Sequence record: OR845888.1
DNA length: 1,511 nt
Strand: one strand, 5' to 3'
Origin: Escherichia phage ECO95 1-6-1
Of the stretch, positions 1-1,084 are shown one piece after another. Numbering within the stretch: the stretch's first letter is position 1; every line of letters begins with the position of its first letter. The notes under the pieces are model-generated. The model searched no databases, had not been told where the DNA came from, and saw only the letters and a program-made list of their open reading frames with translations. The position numbers and the translations under genes are program-made.

Positions 1-325
1 GTCCTAATAGCTGTTTAGGGTCATTCAGGTTTAAAGCCGGTACTTGCTGCTTCTGCTCAAGTTCCTGCCAGCGGTCAACTAATCGAGCTGTGAACTCCGG
101 GCTGAGACGTGCCACAATAACAAAGCTGTCACGTTTACCAACCGCATAACACTTACCTACATTAGTCGCTGTTCGAACTTCCTCAATTTGAGGAGATTCA
201 ATCAAACCCTTGTCCAGCAGGTCTTCTATAGTACGCTTAACATTATCATGCCGCTTACCAGTCAACTCAGCAATCTCACGGCTGGTCATAGTCTGTACTT
301 CGTTAGTAGTAGTTAAATCAAACAT
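1..325 (-). CDS. Rha-family phage regulatory protein (antirepressor-like), N-terminal 108 codons; 3' end lies beyond the left window edge
   Basis: ATG at 325..323 (plus-strand cat), open in frame to position 2 with no stop. Translation MFDLTTTNEVQTMTSREIAELTGKRHDNVKRTIEDLLDKGLIESPQIEEVRTATNVGKCYAVGKRDSFVIVARLSPEFTARLVDRWQELEQKQQVPALNLNDPKQLLG. The block SREIAELTGKRHDNV...DRWQELE matches, from memory, the conserved core of the Phage_pRha regulatory domain. SD-like AGGGAGAG lies 5-7 nt upstream of the ATG and overlaps the TAA stop (328..330) of the preceding gene. Not in the ORF track because no stop falls inside the window. Confidence 0.8.
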   Translation of the reverse strand, partial: MFDLTTTNEVQTMTSREIAELTGKRHDNVKRTIEDLLDKGLIESPQIEEVRTATNVGKCYAVGKRDSFVIVARLSPEFTARLVDRWQELEQKQQVPALNLNDPKQLLG

Positions 326-327
326 TC

Positions 328-531
328 TTACTCTCCCTCTTCCTCTTCAAATAAGACGTTAGCGTCAGCCGCTAGAGTCCATGTATACCAGCCCTCATGC
401 TCAATATCCAGCTCAGTACCATTATCATCAAGGATGTAGGTACGGCTCTCATCTCCATCCTTCTTAACATGGTATAGGTCGCCAACAGTTAAGGCCCAGA
501 ATTCAGTAGTCTCGTAGCATTCTAAGAACAT
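328..531 (-). CDS. Small acidic hypothetical protein, 67 aa (paralog B); C-terminal part of the track ORF 328..708
   Basis: Internal ATG at 531..529 preceded by GGAG with a 7-nt spacer (minus-strand TTGGAGATTAATTATG), lying 14 nt after the TGA stop of the upstream gene (545..547). Product MFLECYETTEFWALTVGDLYHVKKDGDESRTYILDDNGTELDIEHEGWYTWTLAADANVLFEEEEGE: 19 D/E against 3 K/R, acidic tail EEEEGE. Shares the motif IE-x-x-G-[WY]-YTWT-[LF] with the adjacent gene. The 5' extension to 708 overlaps the neighbouring gene by about 160 nt in another frame and translates to S/T/P/L-rich sequence, so it is judged non-coding. Confidence 0.65.
   Translation of the reverse strand: MFLECYETTEFWALTVGDLYHVKKDGDESRTYILDDNGTELDIEHEGWYTWTLAADANVLFEEEEGE
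377..389. repeat. 13-nt exact direct repeat gtccatgtatacc, copy 1 (copy 2 at 621-633)
   Basis: Identical 13-mers at 377-389 and 621-633 encode WYTWT and GYTWT in the two acidic paralogs. Confidence 0.6.
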
Positions 532-544
532 AATTAATCTCCAA

Positions 545-736
545 TCACTCAACCAAGAAAGATACGTGCTTACCATTAATGTCGGAGCAACCGTAATAAC
601 CGTCACCTTCATCACGGAAGGTCCATGTATACCCTGAATCTGCCTCGATGTAGCACAGGTCAGCTGAGAGGGTAAATTCATACTCATTAAACAGGGTGAA
701 GTGTTCATTAGATTTAACGCAAGTTGCAGTAATCAT
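545..736 (-). CDS. Small acidic hypothetical protein, 63 aa (paralog A)
   Basis: Track ORF. ATG at 736..734 overlaps the TAA stop of the upstream lipoprotein gene by 1 nt (TAATG), with GGAG 8 nt upstream. Product MITATCVKSNEHFTLFNEYEFTLSADLCYIEADSGYTWTFRDEGDGYYGCSDINGKHVSFLVE: 11 D/E against 3 K/R. Contains GYTWT encoded by the same 13-nt string as WYTWT in paralog B. Confidence 0.7.
   Translation of the reverse strand: MITATCVKSNEHFTLFNEYEFTLSADLCYIEADSGYTWTFRDEGDGYYGCSDINGKHVSFLVE
621..633. repeat. 13-nt exact direct repeat gtccatgtatacc, copy 2 (copy 1 at 377-389)
   Basis: Second copy of the 13-mer at 377-389, here encoding GYTWT in paralog A; read directly from the sequence. Confidence 0.6.
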
Positions 737-975
737 TACATAGTCTCCATAGATTCAACAAAGCATTGCACAACAATCAGCTTATCATCGTAAGGCATAG
801 CCTCAACGCTGTTTAAGGCGTCCACAAGGTCCTTGAGATCGATGTTCTGAGCGTAAGCCCACTTACCCCAGTTGCACAGCTCAATGCTGTTAGGCACGGC
901 CTGAGCGTCCTTACAAGAGAGCATAAGCACAGTACCTGCCAATGCACCGAAGAACCAGATTTTAAAAGTAGTCAT
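736..975 (-). CDS. Small putative lipoprotein or secreted protein, 79 aa from the ATG at 975 (81 aa if the GTG at 981 is used)
   Basis: Track ORF 736..981 begins at GTG; the in-frame ATG at 975..973 has a better-placed SD (GAGG, 5-nt spacer). N-terminus MTTFKIWFFGALAGTVLMLSC has a basic n-region, a hydrophobic core and L-M-L-S-C at the cleavage region, which fits a permissive lipobox pattern with Cys21 as the lipidated residue. An alternative AQA signal peptidase I site follows. The mature part has two further Cys (ELCNW, VQCFV) that could form a disulfide. Confidence 0.75.
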   Translation of the reverse strand: MTTFKIWFFGALAGTVLMLSCKDAQAVPNSIELCNWGKWAYAQNIDLKDLVDALNSVEAMPYDDKLIVVQCFVESMETM

Positions 976-982
976 AAGCACC

Positions 983-1084
983 TCAGCTAAACAGTTTAAT
1001 TAAAGCATAGATTACAAGGAAAGGAGCTGCCCATTGCAGGAGCAGCAGCGGAAGGATAACCAGCATGTACATAGCGTTACGCAT
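983..1084 (-). CDS. Hypothetical 33-aa hydrophobic single-pass membrane peptide (not in the ORF track)
   Basis: ATG at 1084..1082 preceded by AGAGGA with a 6-nt spacer (minus-strand CTTAAGAGGATTTTATATG). Translation MRNAMYMLVILPLLLLQWAAPFLVIYALIKLFS, then TGA at 985..983. The stop is embedded in the SD (GCTGAGGTG) of the downstream lipoprotein gene, implying translational coupling. It is the first ORF after the promoter and leader. Below the length threshold of the supplied track. Confidence 0.45.
   Translation of the reverse strand: MRNAMYMLVILPLLLLQWAAPFLVIYALIKLFS

Follow-up and report, generated by a model that had tools for sequence, protein, structure and literature searches.

We propose that the region analysed here, a window of 1,511 nt from Escherichia phage ECO95 1-6-1 (sequence record OR845888.1), very probably represents the first early unit transcribed by the host RNA polymerase in a Cepavirus-like (Slopekvirinae, T7 supergroup) coliphage, and that its five small genes form a compacted and mosaic early operon, not a five-protein complex. 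Based on this proposal, the unit would have evolved as a mosaic, its early genes being accessory and exchangeable, with a stable peptide/exported-protein pair, a mobile acidic protein A that is sometimes accompanied by a putative remote homologue, B, and a domain-shuffled Rha protein. Unannotated coliphage records match the window at 99.9% identity; its kin are the T7-like Slopekvirinae phages PAS7 and P64441, the relatives being classified in Autographivirales / Slopekvirinae. The near-identical genome ECO104 supplied the sequence beyond the window's left end. The features are as follows.

1-325, minus strand: Rha-domain protein, first 108 codons of 251 aa, ATG 2 nt past the stop of B
328-531, minus strand: acidic protein B gene, 67 aa, predicted all-beta, own GGAG, 13 nt after A
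545-736, minus strand: acidic protein A gene, 63 aa, predicted all-beta, phrog_3249, ATG overlapping the upstream TAA (TAATG)
736-975, minus strand: exported-protein gene, 79 aa, earlier called a lipoprotein, phrog_19819
983-1084, minus strand: membrane peptide gene, 33 aa, stop TGA falling within the following gene's SD
1085-1207, minus strand: leader RNA with four hairpins, from a 12-copy alignment with covariation
1291-1319, minus strand: sigma-70 early promoter, -35 TTGACT (1319-1314), 17-nt spacer, -10 TATAGT (1296-1291), 10/12 consensus matches
1293-1328, no strand assigned: 36-bp promoter-bearing repeat, single copy here, two copies in five GenBank relatives
1349-1511, minus strand: 3' part of the preceding early ORF (54 aa), with its start codon about 2 nt past the end of the window

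The gene boundaries are read directly from the sequence and the ORF list, which bear out the first-pass annotation in that five genes, all on the minus strand, stand back to back with the stop-start arrangement that it described. The stop TGA of the peptide gene (985-983) lies within GCTGAGGTGcttATG, the SD region of the 79-aa gene, leaving a gap of 7 nt; the 79-aa gene and A overlap in TAATG at position 736 (-1 nt); and the stop TAA of B (330-328) is followed after 2 nt by the ATG of Rha (325). These three junctions are as had been noted, while between the stop TGA of A (547-545) and the ATG of B (531) there are 13 nt (TTGGAGATTAATT), not 14. A GGAG/GAGG-type SD is present 5-8 nt before the start codon in each of the five genes. 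Two other gene calls were considered and discarded: for the 79-aa gene, ATG 975 was preferred to a start at GTG 981 on the basis of the homologue N-termini and the SD spacing, and the 126-aa ORF at 708-328 was ruled out as a true gene, all B homologues beginning with M(F/L)LEC and a GGAG lying 7 nt before the ATG of B.

From the tight junctions it had been concluded that the genes are co-expressed at fixed stoichiometry and that their products act as one functional module. In its explicit form this means that the five proteins constitute one module, for example for superinfection exclusion or anti-defence, with the stoichiometry fixed by obligatory translational coupling. The four junctions, all of at most 13 nt, would be expected under such a model, but they are also the genomic norm: in the annotated genomes of PAS7 and P64441, junctions of at most 14 nt number 38/58 and 31/51, i.e., 61-66% of all, with consecutive tight junctions in runs of 6-8, so that four in a row are ordinary. 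The next unit downstream of the window chain in ECO104 has three 4-nt overlaps in succession. The tight-junction pattern of the window is thus not beyond the genomic background; genes that abut one after another are the default layout of a T7-like phage and are uninformative on specific function.

It is noted that termination-reinitiation is compatible with stop-start distances of -8 to +10 nt, that at +11 to +20 nt the efficiency varies gene by gene, and that only about 30% of the E. coli pairs in the -8 to +10 nt class encode complex subunits (Huber et al. 2023, PMC10666635). Like the coupled pairs of that study, the window has junctions in the reinitiation-supporting class, namely 79-aa/A (-1, TAATG), B/Rha (+2) and peptide/79-aa (+7), which would allow the ribosome to terminate and reinitiate. 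Unlike those pairs, the A/B junction (+13 nt) falls in the variable class and every downstream gene carries an SD of its own, from which translation could start independently. Moreover, in contrast to coupled pairs that mark complex subunits, in phage genomes the tight arrangement is the default. The short and overlapping junctions would reflect general genome compaction and would not mark a five-protein complex, and as a sign of shared function or fixed stoichiometry the tight coupling is not supported.

The claim of a single co-expressed unit fares better and is probable. The strong sigma-70 promoter precedes the peptide gene by about 200 nt, the same promoter is present in P64441 and PAS7, and in the ECO104 genome its pattern is observed 4 times against 0.36 expected. 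In the five GenBank relatives the two copies of the 36-bp repeat flank a 317-bp segment with a 77-aa ORF, a segment that is missing from the window. Within positions 1-1084 the sigma-70 consensus scan gave no coding-strand promoter-like site, and the terminator scan gave two weak sites, both inside coding sequence, where 1.0 +/- 0.9 are expected; both results are those of consensus scans, which for promoters covered the sigma-70 type. In ECO104 the next copy of promoter plus leader stands directly after the Rha stop, and a third copy is found elsewhere in the genome. Because of the upstream sigma-70 promoter with its leader, the lack of a significant internal promoter or terminator in these scans and the next promoter-plus-leader after Rha, co-transcription is plausible, and the five genes probably share one transcript. 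Transcription would begin at the promoter at 1319-1291 on the minus strand, would next cross the conserved four-hairpin leader and would then run through the five small genes, each with its own SD sequence. A single upstream promoter common to the five genes is also what the model of one module with obligatory coupling would have.

The leader itself is a well-supported, previously unannotated structured RNA, which, in this group of phages, is found repeatedly where an early transcription unit begins. Its hairpins include H1 (about 1168-1147, with a AAGAGACAAA loop), H2 (about 1146-1126) and H3 (about 1122-1104). At its end stands the peptide gene's SD, AAGAGG (1097-1092), which is invariant and in the window phage is separated from the peptide ATG by 7 nt. 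With RNAalifold on the 12 aligned copies, the extended hairpins are conserved as four helices with 28 pairs, 18 of which have compensatory changes; 98% of the alignment cells are paired, and the observed values were reached by 0/500 shuffles. An Rfam scan of the window (E up to 1) gave no relevant match, leaving the leader without an Rfam family, and a tRNA scan of the window likewise gave nothing relevant. By analogy with the T7 early region, the leader is probably an element of RNase III-type processing or of translation control, with RNase III itself a candidate by the same analogy, and it could serve as a testable element of either kind.

Comparison of gene order across 15 related lineages, a table in which the loci were partly fetched via A or B homologues so that the frequency of A is inflated, shows directly how variable the unit is. 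The exact five-gene order occurs in 1/15 lineages, that of the window's own near-identical clade only. The closest relative, L028 (peptide 97%, exported protein 92%), has peptide, exported protein and Rha without A and B, and L029 has A only; L014 has A and B without Rha. Rha is likewise missing from L009, L021 and L031, and in L016 it is located upstream. The number of different genes in the slot that separates the exported-protein gene from the Rha/Ant-type gene is 0, 1, 2 or 3 among the relatives, and the Rha gene in other relatives is absent, truncated, domain-swapped or upstream. Outside these phages, A occurs without B in Drexlerviridae and lambdoid phages, and B without A in Kagunavirus-like phages, i.e., each alone in unrelated siphoviruses. 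The conserved synteny expected of the five-gene block is therefore not found, and the genes turn up independently scattered, the outcome that the first-pass annotation had itself named as refuting the module. On the other hand, several lineages share the succession peptide, exported protein, A, Rha/Ant-type gene, in line with the one-module model, and from this order a looser functional association of the four may exist. The predicted locations also differ, with peptide and exported protein in the membrane and periplasm and A, B and Rha in the cytoplasm. Since the five-gene order is clade-limited, the slot contents vary and A and B occur alone, with related phages swapping genes in and out, the five genes do not make one fixed functional unit; together with the usual tightness of the junctions and the separate SDs, this leaves the one-module model at fixed stoichiometry very improbable. 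Judged by gene order, only two sub-pairs are stable: the peptide gene with that of the exported protein, and A with B.

For the first of these sub-pairs, it may be asked whether the peptide is a gene at all. If some of the small ORFs, chiefly that of the 33-aa peptide, were not genes, the chain would partly be an artefact of ORF calling, and the peptide indeed has no family match in Pfam, NCBIfam, PADLOC or PHROGs and is unannotated in PAS7. However, at least 12 lineages have a homologue of 33-37 aa in the corresponding place, with 39-97% identity, a conserved C-terminal motif PFL(A/V)(I/V)Y(G/A)L and many synonymous DNA changes; the leader SD 7 nt before its ATG is invariant; and the exported protein, A and B each have many homologues with 44-92% identity. 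An artefact is accordingly extremely improbable. The peptide is hydrophobic (GRAVY 1.57), as its earlier label of a membrane peptide requires. Its junction with the exported-protein gene, with the stop inside the SD, is kept in every peptide-bearing lineage, and order and junction are kept in 13/15 lineages, a true lipoprotein replacing the peptide in the other two.

The comparison corrects two of the earlier labels, that of lipoprotein for the 79-aa protein and that of paralogs for A and B. In the window lineage the 79-aa protein does have a lipobox-like ALAGTVLMLSC (LMLSC) with Cys21, fitting the PROSITE-type pattern ...[LIVMFYSTAGCQ][AGS]C behind a basic and hydrophobic stretch at the N-terminus; but this Cys is lineage-specific, being kept in only 5/61 clusters of the family. 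The protein has a signal peptide with an AQA|VP signal-peptidase I site, such an AxA-type site standing directly before (A/V)PNS in at least 48/61 clusters, and two conserved Cys that are invariant in the family. It has nothing significant in Pfam, NCBIfam or PADLOC, and its PHROG family has no assigned function. The transmembrane peptide and the exported disulfide protein would form a stable envelope-targeted pair.

As for the second sub-pair, the label acidic is borne out by 11 D/E against 3 K/R in A and 19 against 3 in B. That they are paralogs is another matter: BLASTP of A against B gives no alignment, while hhalign of the family profiles gives weak support (probability 67%, E 5e-5, 56 columns, 21% identity), with the predicted strands in register and a shared 5-6-strand beta fold predicted. 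The model of B matches A-family BFVD entries with TM 0.63 at non-significant E-values, and the YTWT string common to both proteins is not aligned in register. On these results any homology of A to B would be remote at most. Neither has anything significant in Pfam, NCBIfam or PADLOC, B giving only a sub-threshold CBM26 match; in PHROGs the family of A is without an assigned function and B matches phrog_14592, "virion structural protein", weakly (E 0.00096). Some A homologues are annotated as "putative minor capsid protein", a label treated here as unsupported because A lies among early or replication genes.

The two sub-pairs suggest a further model, in which the operon holds two independent pairs, the peptide and the exported disulfide protein acting at the envelope (e.g., in superinfection exclusion or receptor/wall modification) and A and B joining as an acidic heterodimer to inhibit some host factor in the cytoplasm, for instance a nuclease or a defence protein, with Rha as a separate DNA-binding regulator. 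We regard this as possible but tentative. Besides the conserved junction, signal peptidase sites and Cys of the first pair, B follows A at 13 nt every time in the three podophage lineages with B, a spacer that the window shares with L014 and L016, and the strong acidity and the common predicted beta fold would suit such partners. Against this, A is mostly found without B and B without A in siphoviruses, the searches in Pfam, NCBIfam and PADLOC gave no functional homologue for any of the four proteins and PHROGs only unnamed or weak ones, and the fold searches returned generic matches only, from AlphaFold models of low to moderate confidence (pLDDT 69 for A and 61 for B).

The Rha ORF exits the left end of the window, and in ECO104 the full protein is a two-domain protein of 251 aa. 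Its earlier label holds for the N-terminal domain, where Phage_pRha PF09669 (cut-off 29.9) matches residues 13-91, scoring 46.8 bits on the window fragment and 45.9 bits on the whole protein. The NCBIfam subfamily model TIGR02681 stays at 19 bits, below its cut-off of 45.95, and PADLOC gives only weak sub-threshold matches. The N-terminal domain also matches phrog_63, "anti-repressor Ant", and relatives join Rha-N or KilA-N domains to an ANT/KilAC domain. It would thus be a domain-shuffled DNA-binding protein of Rha/Ant type.

Returning to the mosaic early operon, the associations of peptide with exported protein and of A with B are evolutionarily stable and so are the groupings best suited to work with deletions or expression. 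A bolder extension, which we think rather unlikely, is that the chain holds two undescribed two-protein systems, an envelope pair with the stop-in-SD junction conserved across uncultivated Cepavirus-like phages and an A/B beta pair directed against a host defence or nuclease, behind an undescribed four-hairpin leader that is repeated at the heads of successive early units and could alternatively sequester the ribosome-binding site.

Finally, we compare the unit with known systems. Like the Phage_pRha and antirepressor (Ant, KilAC) proteins of temperate phages, the window Rha protein passes PF09669 and matches the Ant family of PHROGs; by contrast, its gene belongs to a T7-like genome of virulent type, and its C-terminal domain is not ANT/KilAC, the PDB sequence search with the full protein giving only a weak GcrA-like match for that domain (E 0.08). 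In lytic phages, early envelope proteins such as T4 Imm and Sp and T5 Llp bring about superinfection exclusion. As a lead only, the small membrane and exported or lipid-anchored proteins of the window would resemble them in being early and under a host-RNAP promoter, while no sequence or fold similarity was detected. The T7 class I early region, on the map of Dunn and Studier, has the host-RNAP promoters A1-A3, RNase III processing sites and small host-takeover genes. T7 belongs to the same supergroup as the window phage, yet 0/5 window proteins are homologous to T7 early proteins, and unlike the T7 RNase III sites the leader hairpins have their own conserved sequence (AAGAGACAA loop, CUUAGUUAAG, ACUUAAGAGG). 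What the window phage group has in common with the T7 early region is the strong sigma-70 promoters at the genome head, the structured RNA elements that recur between early genes or in front of them, and the many small, closely packed accessory ORFs.

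The stretch carries the following features; as read from the sequence and the ORF list, all five genes of the chain are on the minus strand, which had not been stated in the first-pass annotation.

Features of the window
1511-1349, minus strand: 3' end of a 54-aa ORF
1348-1085, minus strand: non-coding stretch
1085-1207, minus strand: conserved four-hairpin RNA element, outside the coordinates of the five-gene chain
1084-983, minus strand: 33-aa hydrophobic peptide
975-736, minus strand: 79-aa protein with a signal peptide at the N-terminus
736-545, minus strand: acidic protein A, 63 aa
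531-328, minus strand: acidic protein B, 67 aa
325-1, minus strand: first 108 codons of the Rha-domain protein (251 aa in full in the near-identical genome ECO104)

The window matches five unannotated GenBank records of a single wastewater project at 99.9% identity; one of them is the 43-kb Escherichia phage ECO104 4-5-2 (locus L001). About 63-65% of the ECO104 genome can be aligned, at about 75% identity, to two annotated coliphages, vB_EcoP_P64441 and vB_EcoP_PAS7. Both are classified in Slopekvirinae of the T7 supergroup, and a proposed genus, Cepavirus, is typified by PAS7 (PMC11522302). From this relatedness the gene block is placed in the part of a T7-like podophage genome that host RNA polymerase transcribes early. 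It is noted that OR847174, OR848645 ('Listeria phage') and OR850875 ('Salmonella phage') share 99.9% identity with the E. coli phage sequence and that the ECO104 record carries the flag UNVERIFIED_ORG; the host labels of the near-identical records look unreliable.

The junctions are real as first described, except that the gap between A and B is 13 nt (TTGGAGATTAATT, from the A TGA to the B start) rather than 14. The peptide is separated from the 79-aa gene by 7 nt, with its TGA embedded in GCTGAGGTGcttATG; the stop of the 79-aa gene and the start of A have one base in common (TAATG); and 2 nt lie between the B TAA and the Rha start. Going by the experimentally derived rules of Huber et al. 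(PMC10666635), termination-reinitiation is possible where stop and start are −8 to +10 nt apart, a range that includes the −1, +2 and +7 junctions, with the +13 junction (A to B) being in the variable class. Note also that a separate GGAG/GAGG motif precedes the start codon of each downstream gene by 5-8 nt, and therefore independent initiation is possible at every junction. Moreover, 38 of the 58 junctions in PAS7 and 31 of the 51 in P64441 overlap or have a gap of at most 14 nt, with consecutive tight junctions occurring in runs of six to eight, and in ECO104 the genes that directly follow the block overlap by 4 nt three times in succession (ORFs 8579-8722, 8719-9141, 9138-9308 and 9305-9433 of L001). 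Four consecutive tight junctions are thus ordinary for genomes of this type. Even among E. coli gene pairs in the −8 to +10 nt range, only about 30% encode subunits of the same complex (PMC10666635).

A near-consensus sigma-70 promoter, TTGACT-17-TATAGT, is present at 1319-1291 on the coding strand and is kept in P64441 and PAS7. A consensus scan of the coding strand within 1-1084 found no promoter-like site, and the terminator-like matches there are two against 1.0 ± 0.9 expected, both weak and within coding sequence. In ECO104 a second promoter, TTGACG-17-TATAGT, follows about 50 nt past the Rha stop. With one promoter ahead of the peptide, none found internally and the next after Rha, the five genes thus make up exactly one promoter-to-promoter unit, and the proposed co-transcription as a single operon is, as far as the sequence goes, a reasonable reading. 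In addition, a 317-bp segment that is present in all five near-identical records (L001 6184-6536) is missing from the window (1293-1328). It encodes a 77-aa ORF and is flanked by two 36-bp direct repeats with the early promoter in each, the difference being either a deletion in the window or a promoter-flanked moron-like insertion in the others.

As the first-pass annotation had proposed as a check, the synteny of the block in relatives was compared, over 15 distinct lineages, all carrying the 79-aa (secreted-protein) gene.

Gene order in the lineages compared
Window clade: peptide, secreted protein, A, B, Rha; the sole lineage with that order
L028, the closest relative (peptide 97%, secreted protein 92%): peptide, secreted protein, Rha; without A and B
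L029: peptide, secreted protein, A, Rha
P64441 (L002): peptide, secreted protein, Rha
PAS7 (L003/L006): two unrelated genes of 42 and 85 aa after the secreted protein, then a protein whose N-terminal domain is of another kind
L014: peptide, secreted protein, A, B; without Rha
L016 and L017: Rha gene ahead of the peptide
L018 to L022: secreted protein, then two other genes of 62 and 66 aa, then A
L009, L021 and L031: without a Rha/Ant-type gene
L010 and L015: peptide replaced by a true 104-aa lipoprotein

Nine of the loci were retrieved via A or B, which inflates the A/B frequency; among the eight found via the secreted protein alone, A occurs in 4 and B in none. Outside this phage group about 85 records, from Drexlerviridae, mEp lambdoid phages and 135-kb phages, carry an A homologue without B, and about a dozen Kagunavirus-like siphoviruses carry a B homologue without A; none of these records holds both. 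As the gene order varies across the lineages and A and B occur alone elsewhere, the block is not kept as a unit. The proposed check thus turned out on the side that the first-pass annotation had named as refuting, and the proposal that the five genes act as one functional module at fixed stoichiometry is therefore not supported.

Within the varying order, two sub-pairs are stable. The first is the peptide with the secreted protein, which adjoin in 13 of the 15 lineages, the upstream stop lying within the SD in all (TGAGGT; TAAGGAG in PAS7). In PAS7 the peptide homologue is an unannotated 33-aa ORF, MGRIFGTTFLIAATIFNITLPFLAIYGLIMLFA (L006/L003 ~1277-1378), with its TAA within the TAAGGAG SD of the next gene. 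The 104-aa lipoprotein (lipobox LMTGC or IMTGC; L010 1234-1548 and L015 2737-3051) stands at the position of the peptide, directly upstream of the exported-protein gene and overlapping its start. The exported-protein gene of L009, an IMG/VR genome, is split by a frameshift (4156-4171), either a sequencing error or a pseudogene. The window's 79-aa protein, first labelled a lipoprotein, does have a PROSITE-type lipobox (LMLSC, Cys21), but across the family only 5 of 61 clusters do, while in at least 48 an AxA-type signal peptidase I site immediately precedes an invariant (A/V)PNSIELCNWGKW; two Cys are also invariant. The most fitting description of the family is a small exported protein, probably disulfide-bonded, and lipidation may be a trait of the window's lineage alone.

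The second sub-pair is A with B, where B, when present in podophages, is always 13 nt after A. The two had been called paralogs. BLASTP between them found nothing, while profile-profile comparison gave 67% probability (E 5e-5, 56 columns, 21% identity). The AlphaFold models are all-beta with 5-6 strands (pLDDT 69 and 61), in register with the profile alignment, and the B model matched A-family entries of BFVD at TM 0.63 with non-significant E-values; a YTWT string is common to both but out of register. Remote homology is thus plausible, whereas recent duplication is not, because for both proteins far closer relatives exist among other families of phages. Separately, a 66-69-aa protein family absent from the window directly precedes A with a 4-nt overlap in podophage relatives and a Drexlerviridae-like contig (L023 3304-3701; L015 3295-3692; L018 1227-1615; L019 702-1090; L021 2624-3015), which suggests a two-gene cassette moving between phage families.

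For the last gene, the name Rha holds for the N-terminal domain, which is above the threshold of Pfam PF09669, but the protein does not pass TIGR02681; its C-terminal domain has a weak GcrA-like match (E 0.08 versus PDB 5yiu). In relatives (L001 7504-8259; L002 5239-5904; L003 2015-2770; L015 3707-4393; L019 1204-2013; L030 3636-4445) the Rha/Ant-type gene varies as a mosaic of domains, with Rha-N, another N domain or KilA-N joined to ANT/KilAC or to a C domain with the weak GcrA-like match.

For the four small proteins no family, defence-database or fold match points to a function. Our best inference is that the five genes serve accessory functions early in infection, independently of one another: judging by location signals, charge and analogy only, the peptide and exported protein are possibly an envelope-directed pair for exclusion or envelope remodelling, A and B possibly cytoplasmic acidic beta-proteins inhibiting host nucleic-acid enzymes or defences, and the Rha-type protein a putative DNA-binding regulator. 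The parts worth pursuing are the peptide/exported-protein pair and the conserved leader RNA.

This element, of about 120 nt, sits downstream of the promoter and ahead of the peptide gene. It is repeated before the next unit after Rha and at a third ECO104 site, and occurs in PAS7, P64441 and several metagenomic relatives; copies are located at L001 6622-6747 and 8458-8583, at L008 5718-5850, and also in L002, L003, L009, L010, L014, L015 and L021. When 12 copies are aligned, four helices result, with compensatory double changes in 18 of 28 pairs; 98% of the cells are paired, none of 500 shuffles attains the observed values and slid controls collapse. No Rfam match was found. The conserved features are a AAGAGACAA loop, CUUAGUUAAG and, at the 3' end, an invariant ACUUAAGAGG that is the source of the first gene's SD. 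In the minimum-energy fold of the window leader the SD is paired with CUUAGUUAAG, itself invariant; such alternative pairing would mask the ribosome-binding site. Note that the N-termini M(S/F)LVKY.RC.GT, as annotated or called, of a 112-aa ORF in P64441 (L002 4554-4610) and an 86-aa ORF in L021 (1350-1405) are translated leader hairpin, the true starts probably being the downstream ATG after an AAGAGG-like SD. In PAS7 one gene sits between the promoter and the element, which is therefore not strictly a 5' leader. The early region of T7 has RNase III processing sites that are intercistronic, and by analogy the position of the element in PAS7 fits such a site, candidate RNase III type.
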